From positions 2,652-66,651 of the forward strand of contig CAIPOI010000008.1 in NCBI GenBank assembly GCA_903866625.1: a stretch of DNA of 64,000 bases, written 5' to 3'. Under the pieces are notes generated by a model, which worked only from the letters and a program-made list of their open reading frames with translations, was not told the DNA's origin and made no database searches. The DNA is from an uncultured archaeon (GTDB lineage Archaea; Nanobdellota; Nanobdellia; Pacearchaeales; GW2011-AR1). The position numbers were made by a program, and so were the translations under genes. Below are positions 21,605-62,593 of this stretch, in pieces. Position 1 is the stretch's first letter; every line of letters begins with the position of its first letter.

Positions 21605-22072
21605 ATGGGTATAAAATACGAGTTAGATTCAGGAATTATGACAAGAATATATGACATAGCTAAGACTCTTGGAATGGAACACATAAAACTTTCTGGGATT
21701 TATGCTATAAGAAGTTATGGGAGTGGTTCAAGTCGAACAATTGCAAGATGTCATGCACTTTCTAAAATATGGCAGTTAGCTCTAGGAATAAATGCAGTCT
21801 ATCTTATTGAAGTTATAAGTGAAAGATTTGATAAGATGAGTAGAGAAGACCAAGATCGAGTGCTGATACATGAACTCATTCACATACCACTTAGTTTTGG
21901 AGGAGGATTTAAGCATCATGATTTTGTTAATGAGAGAAATGTTGAAAAATTATATCAAAAATATGTTTTGTTGAAGAATAATAATTTAGTTTCTAGTGAT
22001 AATCATGTTCGCGAAGAAATTAAAAAGCATGAAAAAAAGAAAAAAGGTGTTTTTGGAGGGAGATGGTTTTAG
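21605..22072 (+). CDS. Putative zinc metallopeptidase (HExxH; SprT/DUF45-like)
   Basis: RVLIHELIHIPLSFGGGFKHHD contains HELIH plus downstream His residues. 155 aa. Confidence 0.5.
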   Translation: MGIKYELDSGIMTRIYDIAKTLGMEHIKLSGIYAIRSYGSGSSRTIARCHALSKIWQLALGINAVYLIEVISERFDKMSREDQDRVLIHELIHIPLSFGGGFKHHDFVNERNVEKLYQKYVLLKNNNLVSSDNHVREEIKKHEKKKKGVFGGRWF

Positions 22073-37159: not shown

Positions 37160-37987
37160 ATGAATAAAAAATCTAGTTTAAGAGCTTTAACAGCAGCAGG
37201 ACTTATAGGTTTAGCAGGAGTTCTAACTTCTCAATCTGCTAAGTCTAATGTTATTATTGGCTATACGGTTTGTGATACCAACAATGTTGATGTAGGAACA
37301 AATCTTGTTGTAAATACACCTTATAGGGTTGGAGTTTATTTAGATTCTACTCCAGAATCTACTGTTGGAATAAATAATGCTGATTGGGATATTTTATTAC
37401 CTTATGGGGGAGGTTATACTAATTATCTAGCTGTTACTGGAGCTTCTTTACCTAATCATAATACTACTGAAGATTTCTTTTATAATTTAAGTATGAATTC
37501 TGGTTTGAATAGAGTAGATTCTACCCCCAATAGTCTTGGTCAACTTGACGACAATTGGAGAGATGTTAATGGAACAACTTCTGGAAGAACAAATGCTTGG
37601 GGATATCTTGGATGGTTGAATGTTACTTTTACTAATACTTTTACTAATAAAAAGTTTACCCTCTCTGCAGCACATGTAACTGATACTGCTGGACAATCAA
37701 AGGCCATAACCTACAACAACCCTTATCTTAATGTCAACGCGATACCAGAACCAACAACTGCTGCTTTGTACTTAATGGGTGTGCCTGCAATAGTTTATGC
37801 AGCGAGACGCAGAAGAAAAGAACTTAATTTAGAATCTGAAACTGATAGACAGGTGTCTATTGAAGCTCGAGTTGCAGAAGCAGAACTTAATAAAAGAAGT
37901 AAAATAAGAGATTGGCAACAACAAATTGGAAGAAAATGCAGAAGATATTCTCCTTCGGTTGAAGTTGCTTTGCCTCAAGCAGCGTAA
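37160..37987 (+). CDS. Secreted protein with internal PEP-CTERM-like anchor and ~55-aa basic cytoplasmic tail
   Basis: Signal-peptide-like N-terminus LRALTAAGLIGLAGVLTSQSAKS. AIPEPTTAALYLMGVPAIVYAARRRRKE at 37742-37819 has the form PEP + hydrophobic helix + Arg cluster. The ORF then continues for ~55 codons. Confidence 0.65.
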   Translation: MNKKSSLRALTAAGLIGLAGVLTSQSAKSNVIIGYTVCDTNNVDVGTNLVVNTPYRVGVYLDSTPESTVGINNADWDILLPYGGGYTNYLAVTGASLPNHNTTEDFFYNLSMNSGLNRVDSTPNSLGQLDDNWRDVNGTTSGRTNAWGYLGWLNVTFTNTFTNKKFTLSAAHVTDTAGQSKAITYNNPYLNVNAIPEPTTAALYLMGVPAIVYAARRRRKELNLESETDRQVSIEARVAEAELNKRSKIRDWQQQIGRKCRRYSPSVEVALPQAA

Positions 37988-39385: not shown

Positions 39386-40402
39386 ATGATTAATTCACCA
39401 AAACGAGACGAACAGAAATCAGTAGTAGAAGATAAAGCATTTAATAATAAAATTAAAACTTGCTCTGATAAGATTCTTCTTTTAAAAAAGGAGATGAGTA
39501 AGGCTGTTGTTGGTCAAGAAACTATCATAAATGCGCTGATAAGGGCTTTAATCTGTAATGGACATGTTTTAGTAGAAGGAGTTCCAGGAGTTGCTAAAAC
39601 TTTTGTTATAAAGTGCCTTGGAACTGTTTCTGGTTGCGAGGTTAAAAGGGTTCAGTTTACAGTAGATTTGTTACCTACCGATATAACGGGTCAAACTATC
39701 TATCATCAGGGAAAGGGCTTTGAGTTAGTTAAGGGACCTGTTTTCGCAAATTTTCTTATTGCAGATGAAATAAACCGATCTCCACCAAAAACTCAATCGG
39801 CCTTACTAGAAGCGATGCAAGAAAAACAGGTAACTGTTGGAAAAGAGACTTTAGATCTACCAAAACCTTTTTTTGTTATGGCTACCCAAAATCCTTTAGA
39901 ACAAGCAGGAGTTTATACTTTACCCGAAGCACAAGTAGATAGATTTATTTTTAAATTAATTATGGGTTATCCTACTAAGGAACAAGAGAGAACTATTCTT
40001 AGGCAGAATACTGATTTAAGCAGTTTTGATAATTTTGATTTAAAAAAAATAGTTTCTCCTAAGGATATTCTTGAAATGCAAGAACTTGTAAAAAAAGTTT
40101 ATATCAGCAAAGAAATTGAGGAGTATATTATTAATATTGTTGCTCTAACCCGTAGTAAACAAGGAAGATTAGCAAAATATATTGATTGGGGTGCCTCTCC
40201 AAGGGCGAGTATAAGTTTATTTAGTGCCGCAAGAGCAGAGGCTTTTATGAACTCAAGAAGTTTTGTTATTCCGCAAGATGTTAAAAAAGTTGCACATGAT
40301 GTTTTGAGACATAGAATTTTGCTTAACTATGAAGCAGAAGCAGATAATATAACCTCTGATGCCCTTATAGAAGAGATACTAAATGAAATCCAAGTACCAT
40401 AA
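39386..40402 (+). CDS. moxR: MoxR-family AAA+ ATPase
   Basis: GHVLVEGVPGVAKT (Walker A), FLIADEINRSPPKTQSALLEAMQE (Walker B / sensor), VMATQNPLEQAGVYTLPEAQVDRF. Confidence 0.92.
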   Translation: MINSPKRDEQKSVVEDKAFNNKIKTCSDKILLLKKEMSKAVVGQETIINALIRALICNGHVLVEGVPGVAKTFVIKCLGTVSGCEVKRVQFTVDLLPTDITGQTIYHQGKGFELVKGPVFANFLIADEINRSPPKTQSALLEAMQEKQVTVGKETLDLPKPFFVMATQNPLEQAGVYTLPEAQVDRFIFKLIMGYPTKEQERTILRQNTDLSSFDNFDLKKIVSPKDILEMQELVKKVYISKEIEEYIINIVALTRSKQGRLAKYIDWGASPRASISLFSAARAEAFMNSRSFVIPQDVKKVAHDVLRHRILLNYEAEADNITSDALIEEILNEIQVP

Positions 40403-40407
40403 TTCCT

Positions 40408-41310
40408 ATGAAAAATCTGAATGTAGATTTTCCTAGAGCAGTAACCCATTTTGAGGCTGCAATGAAATCTCAACTTCTTATAAAAACTGTTTTCTATAAG
40501 AGAATATTTGGTGGCAAGGGTTTTGAATTTGATTCTTATAGGATGTATTCTCCTGAGAATGATGATGCTGGATTAATAGACTGGAAAGCAAGTATGAGAA
40601 ACCCCGCTAAAACTTTGGTGAGACAGTATGTTGAAGAAAGAGATCTTAGAATATTTTTAGTAGTAGATGTGGGTGATAATATGATCTTTGGTTCTGGCAA
40701 CAAATTAAAGAACGAAGTCGCTGCAGAAATAACTGCGGCTTTATGTCATTTGGTATTAAGCTCGGGAGATAGTATTGGTGTGGTTTTATATAGTGATAAA
40801 CTCGTTAAAATTATTCCTCCTTCGGGAGGTATGGCTCAATTTCATGCAATTGTAAAGGCACTTAAAAATCCTAATAACTATGGCGGTAAATCTGATATGA
40901 AACGAGTTCTAAAATATTTATTACCCAGTTTAAAAAATATTTCTGCAGTTTTTATTTTATCAGATTTTCTTAATTTAGATGATGAAACTCTAAAAACTAT
41001 CAAAACTTTTTCAAGTATTTATGAAACTGCGGGCATAATGCTTAGAGATAGAGTAGATTCTTCCCTCCCAAATATTAAGAATGAAGTAATTGTAGAAGAT
41101 ATTTATACTGGCCAGCAAAAAATTATAAATCCCTCTTTAATCCGCGAACAATATCAAGCTTATTCTAATGAGCAGAAAAACAGGATTATTAATGTTTTTA
41201 AGAAGACTGGCTCCGATATCTTAGATTTATCTACAGATGAAGATTTTGCTATAAGTCTTTCAAAATTCCTTAAAAATAGAGCTAAAAAAAGAAAATTTCG
41301 CAACAACTAA
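40408..41310 (+). CDS. DUF58-domain protein (MoxR partner)
   Basis: YRMYSPENDDAGLIDWKASMR is the DUF58 signature, followed by a VWA-like fold (FLVVDVGDNM). Lies 5 nt after moxR. Confidence 0.85.
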   Translation: MKNLNVDFPRAVTHFEAAMKSQLLIKTVFYKRIFGGKGFEFDSYRMYSPENDDAGLIDWKASMRNPAKTLVRQYVEERDLRIFLVVDVGDNMIFGSGNKLKNEVAAEITAALCHLVLSSGDSIGVVLYSDKLVKIIPPSGGMAQFHAIVKALKNPNNYGGKSDMKRVLKYLLPSLKNISAVFILSDFLNLDDETLKTIKTFSSIYETAGIMLRDRVDSSLPNIKNEVIVEDIYTGQQKIINPSLIREQYQAYSNEQKNRIINVFKKTGSDILDLSTDEDFAISLSKFLKNRAKKRKFRNN

Positions 41311-41397
41311 TGTTGTTTTAGCAAGAATCTTTAAGGAAGAAGAATTAAAAAGAGAGGATAACTGATAATATTAAGGTAATAAAATAAAAGAGGAAAA

Positions 41398-42321
41398 ATG
41401 TTTATTATATTTACTAGGCCGATGTATTTGTTTTTTATTTTAGTCATACCTCTGATAATCTTTTTTCATATAATCTCAATTACACTTTCAAAAAGAAAAG
41501 CTATTAAGTTTGCTAATTTTGATGCTATATCTCGAGTTCAGGGTTCAGATGTTTTCTCGAAAAATTTAACTTTACTCTATATTCACTTAGCTGTTGTGCT
41601 TTTAATTGTTTTATCAGTTTCTGGTACAAGTCTTGTTGCTTCTGTTGAAGCTACAGATCAATCTTTTGTTTTGGCTATAGATGCTTCAAGAAGTATGTCT
41701 GCAACAGATATTGCTCCTACTCGAATGGAAGTTGCCAAGGTTGCAGCAAAAGACTTTCTTAAAATGATGCCCCCACAAACAAGAATAGGAGTCTTATCTT
41801 TCTCAGGTACAACTTATATCGAGCAAGATATGACTAATGATGAATATTTAGTAAGGTCTGCAATTGAAAATATAAATATAAAAAACGTGGGCGGTACAGA
41901 TTTTTTGAGTATGTTCGCAGCGGCAACAAACATGCTTAGAGATGAAGAAACAAAAAATGTTATTTTAATAAGTGATGGTTCTGCTAATCTAAATGATATT
42001 CAAACCATTAATGATTATTTACAAAAGAATAGGGTTGTTGTTTATTCTTTAGGCGTAGGAACCTCTGAGGGCGGAAGTGATAGTTCTGGTGGAGAATTTA
42101 AGCTTTCAGAGGATACACTTAATATAATTTCGGAAAATAGCGGTGGTAAGTATTATAACATCAATAACTTGGAGGATTTTTATTCTTCTTTTAACGAAAT
42201 TCTTAGTCTATCTAAGAAGAATATAGTCTTTGATTTGTCGCTTTATCTAATGATTGGCGCATTATTACTTTTTGTTATAGAATTCATACTGATGAACACA
42301 AGATTTAGAACTCTGCCTTAA
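41398..42321 (+). CDS. von Willebrand factor A domain membrane protein (BatA-like)
   Basis: N-terminal TM helices, MIDAS-type FVLAIDASRSMSATD, ILISDGSAN, C-terminal TM helix. Confidence 0.85.
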   Translation: MFIIFTRPMYLFFILVIPLIIFFHIISITLSKRKAIKFANFDAISRVQGSDVFSKNLTLLYIHLAVVLLIVLSVSGTSLVASVEATDQSFVLAIDASRSMSATDIAPTRMEVAKVAAKDFLKMMPPQTRIGVLSFSGTTYIEQDMTNDEYLVRSAIENINIKNVGGTDFLSMFAAATNMLRDEETKNVILISDGSANLNDIQTINDYLQKNRVVVYSLGVGTSEGGSDSSGGEFKLSEDTLNIISENSGGKYYNINNLEDFYSSFNEILSLSKKNIVFDLSLYLMIGALLLFVIEFILMNTRFRTLP

Positions 42322-51218: not shown

Positions 51219-51256
51219 CCTAAAAAACCATATTTTTATTGAGTTACATTACGCTC

Positions 51257-54200
51257 ATGGTTTATAAGAGGTATATAAAAAGAGGGGGGAAGGTTTTTGG
51301 ACCGTATTATTATGAAAGTCATAGAAATTCTAATGGTAATGTAACTACAAGTTATGTTAAATCTAAACCTAAAAATAATTCGATTAATTCTTTGTTAATG
51401 TTTGTTTTAGTGGGGCTTATTTTATTTGGAATATTTTATTATTTTGAAAATTCTTCGAATATTAACTCTAATTTATCTAATTTCAAACCATTATTACACT
51501 ACAGTTTTACAGGTAATGTAATCGATGAAGGTGGTTCAGATTCTTCTCCATCTAGTTCTGAAGCGTCTTCTACTTCTGATTCTTCTACTGCCTCCACTTC
51601 TTCTACTTCTTCATCAGATTCCAGTCCTTCTTCTGATAGTTCTTCTATTTCTACGGAAACTCAAACAACCGAAGCGACTCCTGAAGCTATAACTGAAGCT
51701 TCTACTGAGACTCAAATTTCTGAACAAATAACAGAAACAAGTTCACCTGACTCGGGTTCTTCTGATAGTTCCGGAGCTGAAACAACAATAAATTCTGAAT
51801 ATAATGAAACTACTCCTATTGAAATTACTCAAAATGATTCTATTAACGAAAACAATCAAACGATAAATGAAACTTTAGAATTTGTAAATTCTACATTAAT
51901 CAACGAAACTTTTACAAATGAAACTCTAATTAATAATACTTCACTAGATGAAACTCTAATCAATCAGACCTTAACGAATCAAACTTGGAATAATGAAACT
52001 CTAATCAATGAGACTTTTTATTCTGCTAATTTAACAATTCAAACTAAACAGTATCAGGCGGTTATTAATCGACCGGTTAAATGGATTAAAATTATTAATG
52101 TGACTAATGAATCTGCGATTGATGAGATTCTTTCTGAAGTTCGCAATATTTCTATTGATTTGCCTAAAGAGGCAACAGAAATCCAAATAAAAACAGGTTC
52201 CGACATAGAACAAAGTCTTAGTAATGCTGAAAATTATGCAGAAGAATTTAATCAATCTGTTAGCAAGGAAGATATTGCTCCTGGAAGTATGACTGGATTA
52301 GTTATAAGTGAATCTAATAATTTTGGGATTATCACCCGAGTCTATAACTGGTTATTAGGTCTTTTTAAGAGCAGTCAGATTACTGGCAATGTAGTTGAAG
52401 ATCAAGGTTCTTTTGAAGTTCAAGATCAATTAATTGAAACTTCAGATTCAAAATCCTTGGATGTAGCTCCTTTAGTTCAAGAAATTGTTAATAATATTTC
52501 GGATAACAACTCTATAGCTATAGAGTATACTACTCCGGCTCCAATTGCCGAAGAAAATTTAACTTCGCAAGGAAAACAGATAACCATTTTATCAGAAAGC
52601 GAATATAATTATACCGAAATTTTAGCTTATACTTTAATTGATGATGTTACTGGAATGCAAAATATTCCTATTAATGATACTTCTAAAATAAAACTATACT
52701 GGTATGCTAGTACGGAAGATGCTAAAAAATATGGTTACTCTGAAAAATCTATAGAAGCTTCGGAAGAGTTTAAGATAGAAACTCTTCAGATAAACACTTC
52801 CAAATCTGATGAAGAAATTAATTCAAATCAAGAAGTTTTACCAAAATTTGAAGATAATACTAGCAATAATTCTGAGCAGATAATAAATTCAACAATAGAT
52901 AATGTTGCATCCGAACCAGCAACTTTAACTGCAGAAACTCAAACAACAGAAACAACTCAAGAAACCCCTACTGAAGATGTCGCAAATTCGGAAATAGCTA
53001 TTACAGGAAATGTTGTTGCATCTAATGAAGAGCCAGGAATGATTACTAAATTAGTGGGGGGTATTATGGGAATTACTGGAAATGTTATTGAAACCTCAGA
53101 AGATAATTTAAAAAACAACTCTAATAGTGAAGCTACTTCAGAAACTTTGGAAACTTCAAATCAAAATAATCTGATAAAAGTAGAAGTTAGTTATAATGCT
53201 TATGATTTAGATGGGGATGGTTTTGTAGATTATATTGAATGGGTAGTTCCGCATCTTTCTACTCAAACTTATCAGCTTATTTTAATTACTAAAGCAGAGC
53301 ATTTAGATTCTAATAGAAATTCTATTGAGGACATTTATAATTTTGTTAAATCTTTGGATAGTTCACTATTTGCTGTTCCTAACGGGGATTATATCAGAGC
53401 CAAATTTGAGAAAAATTTAACCATTGGAAAAGATATGACTCTTTATGCAAATGGGAGCGGGGTTGTAAGAGTTTACAATGAAAATAAAAATGATTCTATC
53501 GGAGAATTTTTAATTAATTCTGAAAATATTTCTGAATACAAAATTTATCCTAACTATACTTCTTCAGATACTTATGATCTTGGGTTTATGGGTAATATAA
53601 GCGTAGACTATATTGTTGACCCTCTAACCTGTCCAGATGCTGGTGGAAATTGGGTAGTATCTAATAATTATGTTCTTAGTACTTCTGTAAACTGTTCTAC
53701 TATAACTATTGGTAACGGAGTTACTTTAATAATTAATAGCACTGCTGCGGGAAATCAGTCCGTGAATTTAAGTGCCTTTAACATTACTATTTCTGCTGGT
53801 GGAATTATTAATGGTAACGGAACAGGATACTTGGGGGGTTTAACCGGAAATCCCGGCACAGCAGGATTTGGTCCTGGCGGCGGTGGTTATGGTACTTATG
53901 GTGGTGGCGGTGCAAGCCATGCTTCTGCCGGAGGTGCAGGTTCAAATGGTGCCGCAAATCTTACTATTTATGATTCTGTAACACAACCTATTATGCCAGG
54001 TTCTGGTGGCGGAGGAATTTATACTGGTAGGGGTACTAGTGGTAATGGGGGTAGTGCAATTTATCTCTATCTTTATGATACTCTTGTTAATAATGGAAGT
54101 ATTTTTGTAGATGGTACTAGTGGAAATAGCGGAACTACTACTTATTCCGGTGGCGGCGGTGGTTCTGGTGGAAGTATTTTTATTAATGCTTCTCAAGTAA

Positions 54201-57200
54201 ATGGTATTGGTATACTTTCAGCTGCAGGTGGAACAGGCGGAGCTACTACTCGATCTTCTTCTGGCGGCGGTGGTGGTGGTTCTGGTGGAATAATAAGTCT
54301 TATTGCTCGAGATTATGATAGTTATGCGGGTAGTTTGATAGTTTCATCGGGATCTGGATATTCTGGAACTGTTGCAGGCTCAGTTTATAGACCTGCATCA
54401 TCAACTCTAGGGAATGTGATAATTCCTTCAGGTCAAACTACTACTTGGACTCTTGGAAATTTTACTTTTAATAATTTTACTTTAGAATCCGGTGCTACTT
54501 TGCTTGTTGTAAATGCTGCTAGCCCCTCAAATTGTTTTGGTGGAATTGGTGGAGGTTCCGGTCCTGGAGTTTCTTCAAGTGGTTCTGGTGCGGGTGGTGG
54601 AGCAGGACATGGAGCTAATGGTGGAGCAGGAAGTTCTGCGGGTGGAACAGGCGGAGCTAGTTATGATAATTCTACCTGGCCTTCTATTATCGGTTCTGGC
54701 GGCGGTGGCGGAAGTTCAACCACTACCGCTATGCCTACTGGAGGTTTTGGGGGAGGACAGATTTATCTTAATGTTGTTAATACTGCTAATATAAATGGAA
54801 CTCTTTCAGCTGATGGAACCAATGCACTCACTGGAAGCAATGGTGGCGGCGGTGGTGGTTCTGGTGGAAGTATTTTGTTGAACTCTTCTAATTTTATTGG
54901 TAGTGGAACAATAACTGCGAAAGGTGGAAATGGAAGTTTATATGCAGGTAATACTGGCGGCGGTGGCGGAGCTGGAGGAAGATTAGGTATTTTCTTTACA
55001 ACAAGCCAGTATACTGGAACTTTAACTACTGCTAATGTTGCAGGAGGTAGTGTTAATCATACGAGTGCGGTTGCAGGAGGAACAGGAACTTTATCCATAT
55101 CTGATTTTATAGCCCCAACAATAGTTTATGATGGAACTTCTGAAAATACTAGTACTACTTTAACTGCAAGAAATAACATTTTTGTTAGTGCAACAGCTTC
55201 AGATGATATTAGTCTTGCTTCAATTAATATTACATTATACAATTCTCAAGGTTTGACTAATTATTCTGTGCAAACTTATGTAACTAATGCTACAAATACC
55301 TATACTTATAACTTTACTAATCTTGTTGATGGAGTTTATTCCTTTAATGCTACTGCCAAAGATAGCACTGGAAATTCTAATTCTTCAGGTTCAAGAACAG
55401 TAACTATTGATTATTTATCTCCTAACGCAGATTATTCTACTGGAACTGAGATTGCTTCATCTTATCTGCCAAGAAATTATGCCTTCGTTAATGTTAGCTC
55501 AACCGCTCCTGATGTTCAGAATGTTACAATTAATTTGTATAATACTAGTTTAGTTAATTCAACTCTTATTACTTCTGCTCCTTATCAACTTAATTTTACT
55601 AATCTTGCCGACGGAATTTATTATTTTAATGCTACTCTTAAGGATCCTACTCATTCAAATTCAACGACAACTAGGACGGTAACTATTGATACTATAAGTC
55701 CTCAACTAACTTTTGCTTATCCTGTTTCAGGAACAACTTATGAAGTTGATGTTACTAACTTTAGTTATAATTATATCGAAGCAAATCCTGCTTCTTGCTG
55801 GTATTCCTTGAATGGGGGAACAACTAATACTACAATTACCTGCGGCAATAATGTTACGGGTTTAACTGCTTCTTCGGGAAGCAATAGTTGGAATTTATGG
55901 ATGAATGATAGTGCGGGACATCTTACTAATAGTGCACTAACTTTTACTAAAAATATTTCAAGAATTAGTTTTTGCAGAACTCTTAGTGATTCTGGGGCTT
56001 ATACTGTTTTGAATAATATTAGTAGTGTTTCTGGTAACTGCTTAACGGTCAATTCTAATAATGTTATTATTGAGGGTAATGGATTTACTTTTAGTGGAGA
56101 TAGGGTAGGAGATGATTATGGAGTCTATATTAATGGCAGAAGCAATGTAACCGTTCAAAATTTTGGAAACATAACAAATTTTGCCAAGGGTGTTGGAGTT
56201 ATTTCCTCAAGCAATTGCTTAGTAAAAAATCTTTCTATAAGTTCTTCTACAGATCATGGTATCTATGTTCAGTGGGCTTCTACTAATACTTTTAGAGATT
56301 TAATATTAAATGGAAATGCTGGTGCTGGAATTTATGTAAACTTTTATGCAACTCTAAACAATTTGATTAATGTAACTGCCCAAGGCAATAGTGGAAATGG
56401 AATAGGGATAAATGATAATTCTAACAATAACACTTTAACTAATTGTACTGTTAGTGGGAATTCCCAAAGTGGTGTTGCTATATTGACCTCTGTAGGAAAT
56501 ACGTCTATAAATAATCTTTATTCCTCAAGCAATCTTGGAAGTGAAATTTATGATAATTCTGGGAACTCTAAGATTAATTATCTAAGATATGAAAATCAAT
56601 ATGGGAAGATTGAATGGACTAACACTAGTGATGGGAACTTTTTAAAAAATTTGGGTGTTGAAGGTTCGCTTATTCTTGGGCAAACCTTGAATATCACTCA
56701 GTCTTTTATAGCTTTAGCTACAAGCTCATTTAGCTCTAGTAATATTAGTTCTTCGGCTAATATAACCCTCTACGGAGTTAATACTAGTACTATAAGGCCT
56801 GTAGTTTATAGAAATTCTAGTGCTTTATGCACCTCGGTTTCTTCTCCAAGTTGTTATAATTTTACTAATCTTAATGTAGCTAATCCTGTGTTTAATATTT
56901 CTAGTTGGAGTAATTACACTATAATTGATTTAGGGAGTAGTTATCTTGGAATTACTATTAATAGTCCTGCAAATACTACTTATACAACTTCTAATATTCT
57001 AGTTAATTTATCTGTTCTAAATTCTTCTTCTACAACTTTTTATAATGGTAGTGCTAATAATACTTATACCACTCCAGCTAGCCATAGTTTCGGACAAGGA
57101 AGCACTAATCTTTTAGTTTATGCTACAGATGGTTACGGAAATTATAATGATGCAAATGTTGTATTTTTTGTGGATTCAATTTTGCCGCAAATAACAATTG

Positions 57201-60200
57201 TTTCTCCTAGCGTTAATAGTTATTATAATTCGCCAACTACTGCAACGATGACTTATGTAGAAACAAATCCTGCTTCTTGCTGGTATTCTTTGAATGGAGG
57301 AATAAATACTAGTTTTGTTTGCAATAATAATATAAGCGGCATGAATCCTGTGGAGGGTTTGAATAGTTTGATAATCTGGATGAACGATACTCTTGGAAAC
57401 AAAAACTCTTCGAGCGTTTCTTTCTATAAAGATACTACTCCTCCCCAAATAACAATTACTCAACCAAGTTCATTAACCTCTACTTCAACTTCTATAAACG
57501 TTGAATTTAGTTCTAGCGATTCTGGAGTTGGTGTTTCATCAAGATGGTTTAATGATGGTGTAAATAATATTTCTTATTCTACTCCTACAACTGCAACTCT
57601 TGGGCAAGGCAATACAACTATTATCCTTTATTCTAATGATAGTCTAAATAATTTAAATTCAACTTCATTAAATGTTTTTGTTGATTCTATAGCTCCTGCT
57701 GTTTCATTTATCTATCCATTAAATGTTTCTAGTTTAACTTCTAATTCTTTTAGTCTTTCTTATAGTGCTTCAGATACTACTCTTGATGATTGCTATTGGA
57801 GTTCTAATAATGGTGCTTCAAATACTACTCTTGCTTCTTGTTCAACAAATATAACTTCTAGTTGGGGTCAGGGTTGGAATAATATTACACTTTATGCTAA
57901 TGATAGTCTTGGAAATATCGGCTCTACAAATGTTGTATTTTTTGTGGATAGTATCTATCCTACTATAACAATCAATAGTCCAAATAATGATAGTGACTTT
58001 GGAACAAATTATTTTGCAGTTAATGTAAGTGCGGTAGATACTAATTTTAATAATATAACTACTAGATTGTATAATTCTTCTTTAAGTCTTATTAATACTA
58101 CTTCTTTAAGTACTACTCCTTTTACAATAAGTTTTGTTAGCCTGGGTGATGGAATTTATTATTTTAATTCAACTGCTTGTGATATTCTAGGAAATTGTAA
58201 TAGTAGTGAAACCCGAAAGTTGTATATTGATAGTGGTTTGCCAACCCTAAGTTTATCTTCACCTTCTGATAATTCTTATCTTAATTATACTAATGTAAAT
58301 TATAGCCTTTCAGTTTCTGATACTACTTCTGGAATTTCAAATTATAGTTTGAATATTTATAATTCAACAAGTCTTGTTAATCAAACAACAAAAACTGTTG
58401 GCTTTAGAACTAATAGTTTAACCGACGGAATAAATGTAACTTTGAATACTGGAAATTATACTTGGTTCTATCAGGCTTATGATTTGGCCGGAAATTCTAA
58501 TCTGAGCACTAATAGAACTGTTATTATTGATATGGTTTTGCCTCAGATTAATATTACATATCCTGTTGAAGGAATGCTTTATGCTTCTAGACCCAATACT
58601 ATAAATTATACTACTTCGGATAATTTTGGAGTTGATAAATGTTGGAATACTTTTGATAGCAGACCTCTTAGCTGTTTAGGTTATGTAACCGGACTTTCAA
58701 ATGTAGTAGCTGAAGGAAGTAATACCTGGAATATTTATACTAAGGATTTGGCGGGAAATCTTAATTCTACTAGTGTAACCTTTTTGGTTGATACTCAAGC
58801 ACCAAGAATCTCTTTTATTGATACAACTACTGCTACTGGAAATTATAGCAATGTTAATTATGTTTATGCTAATTTAACTGCTTCAGATACTCGTTACGCT
58901 AATGCAACAATTTACATTTATACTCCTTCAGAATTATTCTATAATCTTACAAGTACTGAAACTCAATTTAATCTAACTAAATTAATGCTACAAGATGATA
59001 TGTATTATCTTAATGCTAGTGCTTGGGATCTTGGCGGAAATAGTAATTCTACTGAAACTAGAAGAATAATGCTTGATAGAAACTTCCCCCAAATTTCTTT
59101 TGGTGCTGGAATGCTGGATAATGGTTCTTCATTTTCTTCAAATAGCCTTTTCGCAAATATAAGTTTAGATGAACAATTTACAAAAAATATAACTTTTTAT
59201 TTGTTTGAAGAGACTACAAATAGTTTGGTTTCAAGCAAGACTTTCACTAATTCGACTAACTCTACTTATTTTGATACTTCTGAAGATGGGTTGTATGATG
59301 TAGAAGTTATTGCTTATGATTGGGTTGGACATTCAAACTCTACCGGCAATAGAACTTTCTATAAGGATACTATAGGACCGGTTTTTTCAGGATACAAATA
59401 TAACTCTAATTCCAGTTTTGCACAAGTAAACATAACTGCAAGAGATGTTCCTTCAGGAGTTGATAGTGTTTGGGCGGAAATTTTAGATAGTAACAATACT
59501 TCCATTGGAGGTTATGAATTTTCTAGACAGGCTGGAGATTTATACAATGGCAATTATAGCGTAAGCATAACTAATATTACTAATATCGGGGATTATAGAA
59601 TTCAAATCTACGCGAATGATACGGGTAATGCTACTTCTAATTCAAGTTATTATTTTGATATTTATCCAACAACGAGTTTTAGAGTTAATCCTAATGTAAC
59701 TAATTCTAATGTGACATATAACTTTACTTTTTTTGGTTCGGGTAATGATTTGGGCGAGATAAATACTTCTTTAAGTTCTAACTCTACTCTTAAGAATCGT
59801 GAATATGATGTCTCAGTTAATGCTTCTGATAACAGTTCAATTGTATTTTATAATCTTACTCTTGGAATCTCTAGCCCAAATATTAATATCCAACAAATTA
59901 ATAACAGTATTCAGTCTACTCCTTCTTTATATAAGCCTCTTAAAGTTTTAGCAGTAGAATTAAATAATTTAACTCTGGGTAATGGGGCAAGAATAGAGAT
60001 GGATTATTCTGGAAAGTTTGATAGTGGAGATTACCCTATAATTAATGAAAGTCAGTTAACAGTTCATAAATGTTCTTCTTGGAGTATTTCTTCTCAAACC
60101 TGTAGCTCTGACTGGATAGAAGTTAATGGAACTACGATTAATACTCTTGCAAAGAAAATAAGTTTTGATGTATCGGGGTTTTCTGCTTATGAAATTACTG

Positions 60201-62203
60201 AATACCGATGTGGAAATGGTATTTGTGAAACTGCTTATGGAGAAACTACTATTACTTGTTCTTTAGATTGTAGTTCTGAACAGACAAATAACACTACTAC
60301 CCAGAATAATAATGGTGGTGGAGGCGGCGGAGGCGGAGCTCCAAAAATTGATGGTTCAAAAAGTCTTAGTTTGAGTACACTTGAAATATCTGAAGAGTTA
60401 AGAGTACACGACTCCGCAAATAGAAGCATAACTGTTTCCAATCCTCAAACTACTTCTGTAGAAGCTAGTGTTACTCTTGATGGCGAAGCGGCTCTAATTG
60501 CTCAGGTTTATCCTACTAATTTAACTATTCCCCCTCTAAGCACCAGGGCAGTTACACTTATGATTTCTGCAGATAAAGAGGGATTTTATTCTGGGGAGAT
60601 AACTATTAAATCTGCTACGAGTGAACTAAAAGTTCCTGTTAAAATTTTAGTTAGGGGAAATAGTGATAAACTAATGGACTTAAATGTTCAGATTGATAAT
60701 AAGAAAGTTGCAAAGGGTGAAGATTTGGATTTTAGATTAGCGGCATTTAATTTGGGGAAACTTTCAAGATATGATATTAATATTAGATATGAAGTTATAG
60801 GTAGTGATAATAAGACTTATGCTTCTCAACAGGAAGCAATTGCTATAGAAACTTCATTAAATCTTGTTCGAAGTATAGCCATTCCAAGAGATATGCCCCT
60901 TGGATCTTCTTCTTTGGTTGTAACTGCATTTTACGACGAGAATAGTGCTAAATCTGTTTCTTCATTTGAGGTTGTTAAGCCCGAGTTTACAATGAACCTG
61001 CCCGCGATAATAAAAGAAGGACTGCCATTGTTTATGACCGCTATTTTATTAATCTTTTTTGCGGTTGTTGGCTACTATTATTTTACTTTCATGAGAAAAA
61101 AATTGTTTGAAAAGGAGATGGAGGAGATAAAAAAGAAGAGTATATATAAATTCCCTGATTTTGATTTACTTCCAAAATCTCATTTTGCGTATATTGGTTT
61201 AATTGCGGATACAAAAGTAAAGACTTATTTGGATTATACTCAGTTGAATAGACATACACTTATAGCTGGTGGAACTGGAAGCGGTAAAACTATTTCTGGG
61301 ATGGTAATTGCAGAAGAACTATTAAGAAGAGATCAGACTGTAATTGTATTTGATCCGGTTGGACAGTGGAGTGGATTTTTTAATAAAGATGGTGATAAGA
61401 TGATGCTCAGCAAGTTCAGAAAATTCGGCATGAGTTCAGCTAGGTCCTTTGGTGGAAAAGTTATTCAGATAACTAAAGATAGTATGAATCTTGATATTTT
61501 GAAATACATGAATACTGGAAAATTAACTATACTCAGAATGGATGCTTTGAAGCCAAATGAAGCAGATACTTTTATTGAGCAGTGCTTGGAAAAGATTTAC
61601 AGGGCAAATCTGTCTGAAGTTACTAGTTTGAAAAATCTTTTGGTATTAGACGAAGTTCATAGACTGCTTCCTAAATATGGCGGAAGAAAAGCTTATATGA
61701 AACTAGAACAAGCAGTTCGTGAGTTTAGAAAGTGGGGTATTGGACTTTTAATGATTTCACAGGTACTGACTGATTTTAAAGGTGCTATTAGGGGGAATAT
61801 TGGAACAGAAATACAGTTGTTCTCTAGATACGAGGGAGATATTAAAAGAGTTAGAGAAAGACATGGTTCGGATATTAGCAAATTAATACCTAAACTTCCA
61901 ATTGGTATTGGTATGGTTGAGGCTGGAGGATATAATCGTGGTAGTCCTTACTTCGTAGATTTTAGACCTATCTATCACTCTCCTTTGAAATTGACTGATA
62001 AAGAGTTAGCAAGATATGTTGATAAAAAACCTTATTTGAGTGCTATGCCGGCTAAAACTTCTAAGGGTCACGAAGCTAAAAGCGAAGGCAAATCTGAAGA
62101 TAGCAGGGAAGAAGCAAAGGAGGATAAATCAGAAAAGAAACCTGAACATAAGAAAACAGAACATCATCCAACTCCTCATACTTCTCATAAACATAAAAAG
62201 TAA
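51257..62203 (+). CDS. Giant two-pass membrane protein (~3648 aa): extracellular adhesin-like region fused to a C-terminal cytoplasmic HerA/FtsK-type P-loop ATPase
   Basis: Uninterrupted ORF (the track starts it at TTG 51239). ATG 51257 gives MVYKRYIKRGGKVFGPYYYESHRNSNGNVTTSYVKS, colinear with the N-terminus of giant protein 1. Order of elements: TM1, S/T-rich linker, sequon-rich repeats, EF-hand loop, Gly-rich solenoid, PbH1-type beta-helix, many Ig-like modules, poly-Gly, CARDB-like region, TM2, then Walker A/B ATPase. Confidence 0.85.
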   Translation: MVYKRYIKRGGKVFGPYYYESHRNSNGNVTTSYVKSKPKNNSINSLLMFVLVGLILFGIFYYFENSSNINSNLSNFKPLLHYSFTGNVIDEGGSDSSPSSSEASSTSDSSTASTSSTSSSDSSPSSDSSSISTETQTTEATPEAITEASTETQISEQITETSSPDSGSSDSSGAETTINSEYNETTPIEITQNDSINENNQTINETLEFVNSTLINETFTNETLINNTSLDETLINQTLTNQTWNNETLINETFYSANLTIQTKQYQAVINRPVKWIKIINVTNESAIDEILSEVRNISIDLPKEATEIQIKTGSDIEQSLSNAENYAEEFNQSVSKEDIAPGSMTGLVISESNNFGIITRVYNWLLGLFKSSQITGNVVEDQGSFEVQDQLIETSDSKSLDVAPLVQEIVNNISDNNSIAIEYTTPAPIAEENLTSQGKQITILSESEYNYTEILAYTLIDDVTGMQNIPINDTSKIKLYWYASTEDAKKYGYSEKSIEASEEFKIETLQINTSKSDEEINSNQEVLPKFEDNTSNNSEQIINSTIDNVASEPATLTAETQTTETTQETPTEDVANSEIAITGNVVASNEEPGMITKLVGGIMGITGNVIETSEDNLKNNSNSEATSETLETSNQNNLIKVEVSYNAYDLDGDGFVDYIEWVVPHLSTQTYQLILITKAEHLDSNRNSIEDIYNFVKSLDSSLFAVPNGDYIRAKFEKNLTIGKDMTLYANGSGVVRVYNENKNDSIGEFLINSENISEYKIYPNYTSSDTYDLGFMGNISVDYIVDPLTCPDAGGNWVVSNNYVLSTSVNCSTITIGNGVTLIINSTAAGNQSVNLSAFNITISAGGIINGNGTGYLGGLTGNPGTAGFGPGGGGYGTYGGGGASHASAGGAGSNGAANLTIYDSVTQPIMPGSGGGGIYTGRGTSGNGGSAIYLYLYDTLVNNGSIFVDGTSGNSGTTTYSGGGGGSGGSIFINASQVNGIGILSAAGGTGGATTRSSSGGGGGGSGGIISLIARDYDSYAGSLIVSSGSGYSGTVAGSVYRPASSTLGNVIIPSGQTTTWTLGNFTFNNFTLESGATLLVVNAASPSNCFGGIGGGSGPGVSSSGSGAGGGAGHGANGGAGSSAGGTGGASYDNSTWPSIIGSGGGGGSSTTTAMPTGGFGGGQIYLNVVNTANINGTLSADGTNALTGSNGGGGGGSGGSILLNSSNFIGSGTITAKGGNGSLYAGNTGGGGGAGGRLGIFFTTSQYTGTLTTANVAGGSVNHTSAVAGGTGTLSISDFIAPTIVYDGTSENTSTTLTARNNIFVSATASDDISLASINITLYNSQGLTNYSVQTYVTNATNTYTYNFTNLVDGVYSFNATAKDSTGNSNSSGSRTVTIDYLSPNADYSTGTEIASSYLPRNYAFVNVSSTAPDVQNVTINLYNTSLVNSTLITSAPYQLNFTNLADGIYYFNATLKDPTHSNSTTTRTVTIDTISPQLTFAYPVSGTTYEVDVTNFSYNYIEANPASCWYSLNGGTTNTTITCGNNVTGLTASSGSNSWNLWMNDSAGHLTNSALTFTKNISRISFCRTLSDSGAYTVLNNISSVSGNCLTVNSNNVIIEGNGFTFSGDRVGDDYGVYINGRSNVTVQNFGNITNFAKGVGVISSSNCLVKNLSISSSTDHGIYVQWASTNTFRDLILNGNAGAGIYVNFYATLNNLINVTAQGNSGNGIGINDNSNNNTLTNCTVSGNSQSGVAILTSVGNTSINNLYSSSNLGSEIYDNSGNSKINYLRYENQYGKIEWTNTSDGNFLKNLGVEGSLILGQTLNITQSFIALATSSFSSSNISSSANITLYGVNTSTIRPVVYRNSSALCTSVSSPSCYNFTNLNVANPVFNISSWSNYTIIDLGSSYLGITINSPANTTYTTSNILVNLSVLNSSSTTFYNGSANNTYTTPASHSFGQGSTNLLVYATDGYGNYNDANVVFFVDSILPQITIVSPSVNSYYNSPTTATMTYVETNPASCWYSLNGGINTSFVCNNNISGMNPVEGLNSLIIWMNDTLGNKNSSSVSFYKDTTPPQITITQPSSLTSTSTSINVEFSSSDSGVGVSSRWFNDGVNNISYSTPTTATLGQGNTTIILYSNDSLNNLNSTSLNVFVDSIAPAVSFIYPLNVSSLTSNSFSLSYSASDTTLDDCYWSSNNGASNTTLASCSTNITSSWGQGWNNITLYANDSLGNIGSTNVVFFVDSIYPTITINSPNNDSDFGTNYFAVNVSAVDTNFNNITTRLYNSSLSLINTTSLSTTPFTISFVSLGDGIYYFNSTACDILGNCNSSETRKLYIDSGLPTLSLSSPSDNSYLNYTNVNYSLSVSDTTSGISNYSLNIYNSTSLVNQTTKTVGFRTNSLTDGINVTLNTGNYTWFYQAYDLAGNSNLSTNRTVIIDMVLPQINITYPVEGMLYASRPNTINYTTSDNFGVDKCWNTFDSRPLSCLGYVTGLSNVVAEGSNTWNIYTKDLAGNLNSTSVTFLVDTQAPRISFIDTTTATGNYSNVNYVYANLTASDTRYANATIYIYTPSELFYNLTSTETQFNLTKLMLQDDMYYLNASAWDLGGNSNSTETRRIMLDRNFPQISFGAGMLDNGSSFSSNSLFANISLDEQFTKNITFYLFEETTNSLVSSKTFTNSTNSTYFDTSEDGLYDVEVIAYDWVGHSNSTGNRTFYKDTIGPVFSGYKYNSNSSFAQVNITARDVPSGVDSVWAEILDSNNTSIGGYEFSRQAGDLYNGNYSVSITNITNIGDYRIQIYANDTGNATSNSSYYFDIYPTTSFRVNPNVTNSNVTYNFTFFGSGNDLGEINTSLSSNSTLKNREYDVSVNASDNSSIVFYNLTLGISSPNINIQQINNSIQSTPSLYKPLKVLAVELNNLTLGNGARIEMDYSGKFDSGDYPIINESQLTVHKCSSWSISSQTCSSDWIEVNGTTINTLAKKISFDVSGFSAYEITEYRCGNGICETAYGETTITCSLDCSSEQTNNTTTQNNNGGGGGGGGAPKIDGSKSLSLSTLEISEELRVHDSANRSITVSNPQTTSVEASVTLDGEAALIAQVYPTNLTIPPLSTRAVTLMISADKEGFYSGEITIKSATSELKVPVKILVRGNSDKLMDLNVQIDNKKVAKGEDLDFRLAAFNLGKLSRYDINIRYEVIGSDNKTYASQQEAIAIETSLNLVRSIAIPRDMPLGSSSLVVTAFYDENSAKSVSSFEVVKPEFTMNLPAIIKEGLPLFMTAILLIFFAVVGYYYFTFMRKKLFEKEMEEIKKKSIYKFPDFDLLPKSHFAYIGLIADTKVKTYLDYTQLNRHTLIAGGTGSGKTISGMVIAEELLRRDQTVIVFDPVGQWSGFFNKDGDKMMLSKFRKFGMSSARSFGGKVIQITKDSMNLDILKYMNTGKLTILRMDALKPNEADTFIEQCLEKIYRANLSEVTSLKNLLVLDEVHRLLPKYGGRKAYMKLEQAVREFRKWGIGLLMISQVLTDFKGAIRGNIGTEIQLFSRYEGDIKRVRERHGSDISKLIPKLPIGIGMVEAGGYNRGSPYFVDFRPIYHSPLKLTDKELARYVDKKPYLSAMPAKTSKGHEAKSEGKSEDSREEAKEDKSEKKPEHKKTEHHPTPHTSHKHKK
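51383..51448 (+). other. TM helix 1 of giant protein 2
   Basis: INSLLMFVLVGLILFGIFYYF, following the basic segment KSKPKNNS. Confidence 0.7.
51530..51790 (+). repeat. Ser/Thr-rich low-complexity linker (coding)
   Basis: GGSDSSPSSSEASSTSDSSTASTSSTSSSDSSPSSDSSSISTETQTTEATPE...SSPDSGSSDSSGAETT. Confidence 0.85.
51865..52017 (+). repeat. Degenerate tandem repeat rich in N-x-T/S sequons (coding)
   Basis: NETLEFVNSTLINETFTNETLINNTSLDETLINQTLTNQTWNNETLINETF. The DNA unit GAAACTCTAATCAAT recurs. Confidence 0.8.
53630..55110 (+). other. Gly-rich beta-solenoid-like region
   Basis: Periodic segments such as GGGGSGGSIFINAS, GGGGGGSGGIISLIA, GGGGGSGGSILLNSS, GGGGGAGGRLGIFF alternate with short hydrophobic strands. 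Confidence 0.55.
55960..56620 (+). other. Right-handed parallel beta-helix (PbH1/NosD-like) repeats
   Basis: NNVIIEGNGFTFSG, GVYINGRSNVTVQNFGNI, GVGVISSSNCLVKNLSI, HGIYVQWASTNTFRDLIL, AGIYVNFYATLNNLINVTA, NGIGINDNSNNNTLTNCTV, SGVAILTSVGNTSI: a ~22-aa periodicity. Confidence 0.65.
61022..61090 (+). other. TM helix 2 of giant protein 2
   Basis: LPLFMTAILLIFFAVVGYYYFTF, followed immediately by MRKKLFEKEMEEIKKK. The basic residues on the C-terminal side imply a cytoplasmic location for what follows. Confidence 0.7.
61150..62030 (+). other. HerA/FtsK-like (COG0433/DUF87-type) ATPase domain
   Basis: RHTLIAGGTGSGKT (Walker A codons at 61268-61291), VIVFDPVGQW, LLVLDEVHRL (Walker B at 61637-61654), EFRKWGIGLLMISQ (resembles the EGRKFG...SQ motif of HerA-type ATPases), IQLFSRYEGD. 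Confidence 0.7.
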
Positions 62204-62593
62204 TTATCTCCTTAACAAGGATCTTTGCTCAACTAATTCTTTTAAGAAAGCTTCTTTGAAAAGTTTTTCAATAATCTTATAGTTGTGTTCATTGAATTGG
62301 CAGAGAACCCACGCAAATCTATCTACTTTAATCATATCAGTATTTGCTACGTATCTTATTCTTTCTGAATCTGGACTTCCTACCTGAAGCCTTAGATGAT
62401 AGGGTTTTTTGAACTCTCTGAAAAACTTTTCAAGAGTCATATTTTCTTCATCTACTCTTTTTATACTACCTGGCGGGATTATATCAAAAAATCTTGTAGG
62501 ATTTAGCAGTTCTTGAGTAGTATACATTAACTCTAAAAATTTTTTATTTTTTTCTGAGCCAAATCTGTTTAAAGAATATTGCCCTATTTGCAT
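62204..62593 (-). CDS. Hypothetical protein downstream of aIF2-gamma
   Basis: 129-aa ORF lying 2 nt after the aIF2-gamma stop. Its stop codon abuts the stop codon of the convergent giant gene with no spacer. Confidence 0.5.
   Translation of the reverse strand: MQIGQYSLNRFGSEKNKKFLELMYTTQELLNPTRFFDIIPPGSIKRVDEENMTLEKFFREFKKPYHLRLQVGSPDSERIRYVANTDMIKVDRFAWVLCQFNEHNYKIIEKLFKEAFLKELVEQRSLLRR

Follow-up and report, generated by a model that had tools for sequence, protein, structure and literature searches.

A Giant SPEARE-Type Surface Protein of a DPANN Archaeon Ends in a HerA-Clade ATPase Module with a Predicted Intact Catalytic Site

Introduction

DPANN archaea depend on physical contact with a host, and SPEARE-type proteins are among the leading candidates for their host-contact machinery. 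As described by Hamm et al. in 2019, the SPEARE of Nanohaloarchaeota are giant, mostly extracellular proteins. Their ectodomain combines one or more laminin-G domains with further domains for adhesion, a membrane helix is found close to the C-terminus, and a conserved intracellular region was read as a type III restriction enzyme (the 'RE' domain) (PMC6642349). The same study showed by mass spectrometry that SPEARE are expressed and pointed to similar sequences in Woesearchaeota, Aenigmarchaeota, Micrarchaeota and Altiarchaeales (PMC6642349). In 2023 La Cono/Reva et al. gave the intracellular region the name 'VirB4/TraG-like ATPase', with a coiled coil after it, and suggested that the protein works as a secretion 'straw' (PMC10266531). 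The one conserved enzymatic part of SPEARE carries three conflicting names: restriction enzyme, VirB4/TraG and HerA. Here we analyze a 64-kb stretch of DNA from contig CAIPOI010000008.1, referred to below as the window, in which one giant gene on the forward strand ends in a fused ATPase module at 61091-62203. This module forms the cytoplasmic part of a giant surface protein that is of SPEARE type and belongs to a DPANN archaeon.

Two bodies of work on HerA-clade proteins bear on its interpretation. Mutagenesis of Sulfolobus HerA showed that K154, D176, E356 and the trans-acting arginine finger R381 are essential; R381K abolishes ATPase activity, for which D176 is also essential, and a DNA-binding loop between E356 and R381 moves together with R381 (PMC4351679). 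CedB and CedD are membrane-anchored HerA-clade ATPases that are needed for crenarchaeal DNA import (PMC11868833). The window adds a member and the description of a subclade to a published family, not a new kind of system. What the present analysis adds is the identification of the catalytic residues, an apparently intact HerA-clade ATPase module in a freshwater-type DPANN genome, and a family size of at least 558 loci counted in genomes that each represent one species, the ATPase being mostly fused to a giant ectodomain.

Results

The ATPase Module Is Part of a SPEARE-Type Protein

The open reading frame (ORF) at 51239-62203 (+) runs through 3,654 codons without interruption, its frame opened by a TTG, and the ATPase module that the original prediction had described as fused at 61091-62203 is indeed in frame with it. 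ORF residues are counted below from the TTG at 51239, while the positions quoted for conservation (267, 277 and so on) are counted in the segment that was modelled. Because homologues begin MVYKKYIKRGGK, the true start is probably the ATG at 51257, which would give a protein of about 3,648 residues. A separate gene beginning at the Met before the second membrane helix (60992) was considered and rejected, as the frame is open for more than 2,000 codons upstream of the ATPase in 44 of the 80 loci listed, and short family members have an N-terminal anchor and Ig domains of their own.

As a SPEARE reference we used the Ca. Nanohaloarchaeum antarcticus sequence given in the supporting information of Hamm 2019 (SI Fig. 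S18). The window module and the cytoplasmic domain of this protein are 38% identical over 381 columns in a BLASTP comparison (E 3e-83). The similarity reaches the last Ig-like module of the ectodomain, residues 3101-3638 being 33% identical to the C-terminal 560 residues of SPEARE (E 6e-83), and the motifs LIAGxTGSGKT, DPxxQWxGF, DEVHRLL, REFRKWG, SQV..DF and FRPxxH are common to both proteins. In the window protein a Cys-rich mini-module (CGNGICETAYGETTITCSLDCS), within the roughly 70 codons upstream of a run of eight Gly codons (60314-60337, +), and the Gly run itself both come before the last two Ig-like domains. SPEARE has the same order: an Ig-like domain with a C..W....C.SDW motif, poly-Gly, two Ig-like domains and the membrane helix. 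Cys-rich and poly-Gly elements like those of the window also occur in family members P0129 and P0196.

We compared the window protein with the described SPEARE set (NAR1_1133 and the Ca. Nanopetramus SG9 paralogues, PMC6642349; SVXNc_0300 and BNXNv_0298, PMC10266531). In all of them the giant ectodomain consists of adhesin-like modules and includes a Gly-rich beta-helix-like region, a poly-Gly tract and a membrane-proximal Ig-like domain; there follow a single membrane helix close to the C-terminus and a homologous cytoplasmic ATPase. Unlike the members of that set, the window protein comes from a non-halophilic DPANN lineage of 31% GC, carries a cytoplasmic motif before its first helix, has no laminin-G domain by Pfam, and ends in a Lys/His tail instead of the C-terminal helical (coiled-coil) extension; its gene is followed by neither a coiled-coil nor a VirB4-like gene. 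Judged by these sequence comparisons, the fusion of a giant adhesin to an ATPase is neither unique nor new and belongs to the published SPEARE family.

The ATPase Domain Falls in the HerA Clade

Profile searches and the structural model both assign the domain to the HerA clade of the FtsK-HerA superfamily. In Pfam it matches DUF87, the HerA central domain (53 bits, E 5e-14), and HerA_C (43 bits, E 3e-11). A profile of the family run against the Protein Data Bank (PDB) retrieves HerA proteins at E values of 3e-12 to 1e-10, DotL at 2e-5, and TcpA, TrwB and FtsK at about 0.02-0.04; there are no VirB4 structures among its matches. The AlphaFold2 (AF2) model, which covers the segment from the second helix onward and was built from an alignment of 65 homologues (mean predicted local distance difference test score, pLDDT, 94; predicted template-modelling score, pTM, 0.90), shows a long helix and a short beta-hairpin, then a single RecA-like alpha/beta domain. 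Its top Foldseek match is the Sulfolobus HerA hexamer 4d2i (E 2e-14), followed by anti-phage HerAs and Thermococcus HerA and then by the STIV2 packaging ATPase and the coupling protein TcpA; sequence identity to HerA proteins is 12-19%. The HerA-like identity proposed from the sequence is thus borne out by Pfam, the PDB comparison and Foldseek, and instead of clustering with signalling NTPases, which had been raised as the result to look out for, the domain falls with the translocase-type FtsK-HerA ATPases.

The module has the same catalytic residues as HerA (4d2i, and the anti-phage SIR2-HerA and DUF4297-HerA) and the same lead-in to Walker A, IG...L..RH..I.G.TGSGKS. Unlike HerA, it has no HAS-barrel, the membrane helix and stalk standing there with two short strands before Walker A in the AF2 model, and no insertion of the size of the four-helix bundle. 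CedB and CedD are likewise membrane-anchored HerA-clade ATPases, and theirs is an activity at cell-cell contacts. The best NCBIfam matches are in fact CedD (E 6e-12) and HerA, but far under the cut-offs (CedD 44.9 bits against 600; CedB 26.1 against 700), the VirB4-like N-domain is absent, no CedA/CedE channel or Ced pilin genes accompany the window gene, and the extracellular part is a giant adhesin where CedB and CedD have a short loop. The coupling proteins (TrwB/VirD4/TraG, TcpA, DotL), which are hexameric, share with the window protein the succession of helix 1, outside loop, helix 2 and cytoplasmic ATPase. They differ from it in that its matches to them are weaker than those to HerA and limited to the P-loop, in that it has no all-alpha domain, and in the length of the 'outside loop', about 3,190 residues in the window protein. 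The module also differs from VirB4, having no PF03135 N-domain, and from a type III Res subunit, having a single HerA-type RecA-like domain in place of a two-lobed SF2 helicase.

Partner genes were sought by a Pfam scan of 42 ORFs of at least 100 residues, which are most of those in the window; small pilins without a Pfam signature can escape such a scan. What Pfam recognised among the 42 ORFs were archaeal housekeeping and surface-protein genes only. Among them we found no NurA, Mre11/Rad50, SIR2 or nuclease partner, no VirB6/CedA/TrbL, no VirD4/TraG, no VirB4 N-domain and no PilB/FlaI-type protein, so that the usual partners are absent from the neighbourhood at Pfam sensitivity, as had been noted from the sequence. 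An anti-phage HerA was also considered and rejected; the PADLOC matches to HerA are weak, a SIR2, DUF4297 or nuclease partner is missing, and the neighbourhood is one of housekeeping genes.

Catalytic Residues

Residue equivalences were taken from HMMER alignments to HerA (4d2i), and conservation was measured in an alignment of 257 family members (the Walker A Lys was counted over 248). The features of the domain are as follows.

61187..61981, + strand: HerA-clade RecA-like ATPase domain (from Pfam, the family profile against the PDB, and Foldseek).
61268..61291, + strand: Walker A, GGTGSGKT; its Lys, ORF residue 3350 (nucleotides 61286-61288), aligns with HerA K154 and is present in 100% of 248 relatives.
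61352..61354, + strand: Asp of VFDPVGQW, ORF residue 3372, aligned with HerA D176; 100% conserved.
61637..61654, + strand: Walker B, LLVLDE; its Glu, ORF residue 3472 (nucleotides 61652-61654), aligns with the catalytic E356 of HerA.
61658..61684, + strand: HRLLPKYGG loop right after Walker B, a candidate pore loop; aligns between HerA E356 and R381.
61718..61738, + strand: REFRKWG; its second Arg, ORF residue 3497 (nucleotides 61727-61729), aligns with the HerA arginine finger R381.
61757..61762, + strand: Ser-Gln ending the sensor-1 strand (ISQ); aligns with HerA VSQ, 100% conserved.
61790..61867, + strand: Arg-rich segment RGNIGTEIQLFSRYEGDIKRVRERHG, a conserved strand-loop-helix with a basic patch (from the alignment).
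61961..61978, + strand: FRPIYH, a family signature at the end of the ATPase domain (R 99%, P 99%, H 100%).

Walker A, and Walker B with its acidic D-E, had been recognised in the original prediction and are read directly at these positions. That prediction left it to an alignment to reveal substitutions at catalytic positions. None was found: by alignment all four residues essential in HerA have their counterparts in the window module, the equivalents of K154, D176, E356 and R381 being kept in 96-100% of the relatives, and the catalytic site is predicted to be intact. In Walker B the Asp is conserved in 96% (Glu in the rest) and the Glu in 98%. REFRKWG aligns with REGRKFG of HerA, and its R, E, R, K, W and G are each present in 100%, and its F in 98%, of the 257 relatives. 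The HRLLPKYGG loop is conserved almost as strictly (H 100%, R 98%, L 98%, K 93%), and by analogy with the moving DNA-binding loop of HerA it may be a pore loop that contacts the substrate. Besides Walker A, Walker B and the arginine finger, about 40 positions are at least 95% conserved, in the window protein and SPEARE as well.

The Arg-rich segment was originally taken to mark the place of arginine-finger or sensor residues. The segment exists and forms a conserved basic patch, in which positions 267, 279 and 290 are Lys or Arg in 90-96% of relatives, position 286 is Arg in 91%, and Q275 and D283 are 99% conserved; the arginine finger, however, lies about 20 residues upstream and is the invariant second Arg of REFRKWG. 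At position 277, which aligns with an Arg of HerA, 73% of the family have Arg, the window protein has Phe and SPEARE has Ser. We considered whether this Phe inactivates the window ATPase and rejected the idea, as the position varies (His, Gly, Asn and Lys also occur) and is Ser in SPEARE itself.

The Giant Protein outside the ATPase Domain

Upstream of the ATPase domain the giant gene is divided as follows.

51257..62203, + strand: whole giant SPEARE-type gene, one continuous ORF, with the start taken from homologues.
51257..51358, + strand: N-terminal cytoplasmic motif MVYKRYIKRGGKVFGPYYYESHR..G.V.TSYV, before the first membrane helix; recurs in other proteins.
51380..51436, + strand: first membrane helix, a predicted signal anchor (ORF residues 48-66; Kyte-Doolittle peak over 19 residues, 2.38).
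51437..61021, + strand: ectodomain of about 3,190 residues, defined by sequon density and by modules common to family members.
61022..61093, + strand: second membrane helix LPLFMTAILLIFFAVVGYYYFTFM (ORF residues 3262-3285; hydropathy peak 2.22).
61094..61186, + strand: Lys-rich juxtamembrane stalk with a conserved Y..P/LP motif (from the AF2 model and conservation).

The distribution of N-x-S/T sequons fits an arrangement with the ectodomain outside and the ATPase inside: the ectodomain has 165 (5.2 per 100 residues), against one in the 369 residues after the second helix (0.27 per 100). Among the parts of the ectodomain are a linker rich in Ser and Thr, two beta-helix-like regions, one of them Gly-rich and the other of the parallel type, and many Ig-like modules. 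At its membrane-near end the Cys-rich mini-module and the poly-Gly tract precede two Ig-like domains. Its modules are 25-47% identical to those of other family members, the Ig-like modules being common to them. Pfam gives weak PKD/Ig matches to the ectodomain and no laminin-G match in the ATPase-bearing giant. In the AF2 model residues 5-49 of the modelled segment form one long helix, made up of the membrane helix and the Lys-rich stalk, and the stalk itself is conserved (Y52 in 90% of relatives, L60 and P61 in 92-98%).

The N-terminal MVYKRYIKRGGKVFGPYYYESHR motif has no Pfam match. Of the long family proteins that were retrieved, among which 106 start with Met, 10 carry it, and 9 of these 10 are distinct at 90% identity. 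The motif is also found in a second giant ORF in the window (29949-37097, +; 2,382 residues), which opens with it (MVFKKYSVKNGKKYGPYLYHNER...), followed by an anchor helix. This protein has in common with the ATPase-bearing giant an internal module, YDLDGxGxIDYIEWxVPHLSxQT..., and contains two laminin-G matches, long Cys-rich repeats and a dockerin-like repeat at its end; it lacks both an ATPase and a second membrane helix.

Family Size and Distribution

An exhaustive search of cluster representatives gave 1,429 matches, 332 of them at E<1e-30. The best 150 representatives are mostly proteins of 600-7,665 residues with the ATPase domain at the extreme C-terminus, and in nearly all relatives a membrane helix lies 65-80 residues ahead of Walker A. 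Scanning a single genome for each GTDB species gave at least 558 loci. Among the 80 loci listed, 79 carry labels of DPANN or unclassified archaea (Woese-, Pace-, Nano-, Aenigmat-, Micr-, Alti-, Nanohal- and Parvarchaeota), the exception being a short contig labelled Heimdallarchaeota, and several genomes have more than one copy. The nearest relatives of the window ATPase are in metagenome-assembled genomes labelled Woesearchaeota or 'Nanoarchaeota'.

In a word-indexed protein search, whose matches are proteins of at most 620 residues, the fusion of the ATPase to a giant protein would appear to be unusual. This reading was rejected as an artefact because the exhaustive representative search and the genome scan showed the opposite. 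The word-indexed search seems to miss C-terminal domains of giant proteins; the exhaustive search gave many giants with higher scores, of which at least the 10 checked belong to the same collection.

Three relatives of 345-417 residues (P0095, P0105 and P0107) have neither a membrane helix nor an ectodomain and retain the full set of ATPase motifs along with the C-terminal helical extension. Two of them come from contigs 1.2-1.3 Mb long, and one of these contigs bears the label Micrarchaeia.

Two Versions of the Family

After the ATPase domain, most family members either match the motif of a conserved helical extension, some 60-75 residues long and C-terminal (161 of 255), or have a tail of that length. 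At 61 of the 72 loci with enough downstream sequence, the next gene, on the same strand and after a median gap of 26 nucleotides, encodes a coiled-coil protein of 350-650 residues. This protein is Lys/Glu-rich and belongs to no Pfam family (for example L015 6790-8400, +, and about 60 other loci among L016-L086), and it may be the partner of the helical extension. Its clustering by BLAST may partly reflect amino-acid composition. A gene for a MinD/ParA-type P-loop ATPase comes after the coiled-coil gene at 14 loci (for example L015 8401-9162, +), and another large N-terminally anchored surface protein is encoded further downstream at 38 loci.

The window and its closest relatives (L008, L010-L014; P0001-P0012, P0121-P0135) have neither the helical extension nor the coiled-coil neighbour. 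In the window no homologue of that neighbour was found with a hidden Markov model (HMM) of the neighbour cluster or with BLASTP. The ORF at 10087-11244, which has a weak 'Baculo_PEP_C' coiled-coil match, was tried as the missing partner and rejected, neither the HMM nor BLASTP giving a match. The statement that the ATPase lacks its usual partners thus holds for the window and its subclade, but not for most family members, which have the conserved downstream coiled-coil gene. The two versions, one with helical extension and coiled-coil gene and the other with basic tails and no partner, amount to a natural experiment.

The end of the window gene and its convergent neighbour are laid out as follows.

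62063..62200, + strand: low-complexity Lys/Glu/His tail of 46 residues, KGHEAK...SHKHKK, recognised by composition; it replaces the helical extension of the family.
62204..62593, - strand: convergent ORF of 129 residues, outside the system; no Pfam match, and no counterpart beside homologues.

The His/Lys-rich tail is present as first described. It contains 13 Lys and Arg, 11 Asp and Glu and 7 His residues, and its last 22 residues hold 7 Lys and 6 His. Tails rich in Lys, Arg and His that cannot be aligned with one another are also found in the closest relatives P0001, P0123, P0124, P0127 and P0128. In sequence terms the basic tail, whose composition is seen again only in this closest subclade, is a compositional trait with no conserved motif. 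The stop codon TAA (62201-62203) directly adjoins that of the convergent ORF (62204-62206), which confirms a stop-to-stop junction with zero spacer.

Discussion

A Possible Motor at the Site of Host Contact

On balance we lean, by a modest degree of belief, towards the view that the module is a ring-forming, membrane-tethered HerA-type motor of a SPEARE-type giant that would translocate a polymer at host contact. The ATPase ring, probably a hexamer, would sit just beneath the membrane. A ring is expected because the arginine finger acts across the subunit interface and all solved relatives are rings. It would bundle the second membrane helices, plus the first ones if these are still attached, and from the hexameric relatives a six-fold surface assembly can reasonably be inferred. 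ATP hydrolysis would move the basic HRLLPKYGG loop after Walker B, and this movement would drive the polymer through the ring at the point of attachment between ectodomain and host cell. It would most plausibly be DNA that is moved, an effector protein being less likely; DNA is favoured because HerA and the membrane-anchored CedB and CedD act on DNA, as do, to our knowledge, all characterised members of the HerA clade. The Lys/His tail, for which the original prediction proposed binding of nucleic acid or metal, appears basic and disordered and could keep a polyanion (nucleic acid or the acidic head groups of lipids) near the ring.

Several observations weigh against such a motor. The DNA substrate is argued by analogy with HerA-clade proteins only, and the window has no VirB6/CedA-like channel gene in the Pfam scan. 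The second membrane helix is hydrophobic, and its sequence is not conserved among relatives in the way that a specific channel lining would be. The tail is of mixed charge and its sequence is not conserved. Relatives without a membrane helix exist (P0095, P0105 and P0107), so the ATPase can presumably work without an anchor. Lastly, in the proteomics of Hamm 2019 the ectodomain of SPEARE and its membrane/cytoplasmic part were in different gel size fractions (PMC6642349); the ectodomain of a SPEARE-type protein may be cleaved off, and the ring might not stay joined to the adhesin.

The motor could be extended into a contact-dependent translocon made from one polypeptide, which we consider quite unlikely. 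Six chains would form the HerA-type ring, the 12 membrane helices together with the membrane-proximal Ig/poly-Gly stalks would provide the conduit, and the ectodomain would find and hold the host. If this were true, DPANN archaea would move DNA or another polymer between cells without a VirB6/CedA-type channel or a pilus, and the window subclade would be a stripped-down version that has no coiled-coil partner and in which the basic tail handles the substrate.

Other Explanations

The ring might instead serve to cluster, position or remodel the giant adhesins and to couple them to a coiled-coil scaffold, with nothing translocated. The coiled-coil gene that closely follows the ATPase gene at most loci, the helical extension or a tail of equal length, and the MinD/ParA-type ATPase gene at some of the loci would all suit such an organiser or anchor, as would the variability of the second membrane helix. 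We nevertheless regard it as unlikely: the loop that follows Walker B is basic and does not vary, which it has in common with translocating relatives, the characterised members of the clade act on DNA, and the window subclade has lost extension and coiled-coil gene alike, yet its ATPase is fully conserved, while the apparent clustering of the coiled-coil genes is perhaps partly driven by composition. VirB4, VirD4 and HerA belong to one superfamily, and the two-helix topology with a cytoplasmic ATPase recalls coupling proteins such as TrwB, both of which speak for a 'straw' resembling a type IV secretion system (T4SS), with Ig-like domains binding the host and a VirB4/TraG-like ATPase powering effector secretion. 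This model was proposed for SVXNc_0300 and BNXNv_0298, downstream of each of which lies a gene whose product is a genuine VirB4-family ATPase with PF03135 (La Cono/Reva et al. 2023, PMC10266531). In the window module the Pfam families T4SS-DNA_transf and TrwB_AAD_bind come just over their cut-offs, but these matches span residues 49-105 only, that is the P-loop region. The N-domain of VirB4 is missing, AAA_10 reaches E 0.033, and TIGR00929 gives 14.5 bits where 643 are required; VirB4 structures do not appear in the PDB comparison, and the coupling proteins rank below HerA in all searches. The Pfam scan of the window turned up neither VirB4 nor VirB6 nor any further T4SS gene, and in relatives the commonest downstream gene encodes a coiled-coil protein, not an ATPase. 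For a module of this kind we find the straw improbable.

Two further explanations are contradicted by the predicted fold and by sequence conservation. In the reading of Hamm et al., the region is a type III restriction enzyme and breaks down host DNA that has been imported; the ResIII match behind this reading also comes up in our Pfam search (28.2 bits, cut-off 22.5), in line with the original 'RE' annotation of SPEARE (PMC6642349). The match covers only the part from Walker A to Walker B (residues 51-206), however, and the HerA-family matches are far stronger; the model shows a single RecA-like domain with neither a second helicase lobe nor a nuclease fold, and La Cono/Reva et al. likewise found no endonuclease domain (PMC10266531). 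We give restriction hardly any credence. The same very low likelihood applies to a vestigial, degenerate P-loop domain that would act only as a cytoplasmic plug for the anchor. Partner genes are indeed missing from the window by the Pfam scan, and the subclade has no C-terminal extension, but the strict conservation of Walker A, Walker B, the arginine finger and the roughly 40 further positions across 257 relatives, the window protein and SPEARE included, is hard to reconcile with decay.

Genomic Context and Other Observations

The window, of 31% GC, is a chromosomal segment of an archaeon, because archaeal housekeeping genes surround the giant gene. Those of gyrase A and B lie just upstream, and that of aIF2-gamma is the next downstream gene, on the other strand; elsewhere in the window are genes for the phenylalanyl-tRNA synthetase PheRS, an RNase P subunit, Rpo7, ScpA, deoxyhypusine synthase, the archaeosine tRNA-guanine transglycosylase (TGT) and Kae1.

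Just after the second giant gene there is an ORF of 275 residues (37160-37987, +) whose end, ...IPEPTTAALYLMGVPAIVYAARRRRK, resembles a C-terminal sorting signal of the PEP-CTERM/archaeosortase type. Three consecutive genes at 39386-42321 (+), located between the giants, code for a MoxR-type AAA ATPase, a DUF58 protein and a membrane protein that is VWA/BatA-like. Amid housekeeping genes, a 155-residue ORF (21605-22072, +) matches the Pfam family 'putative phage metallopeptidase' (E 9e-21).

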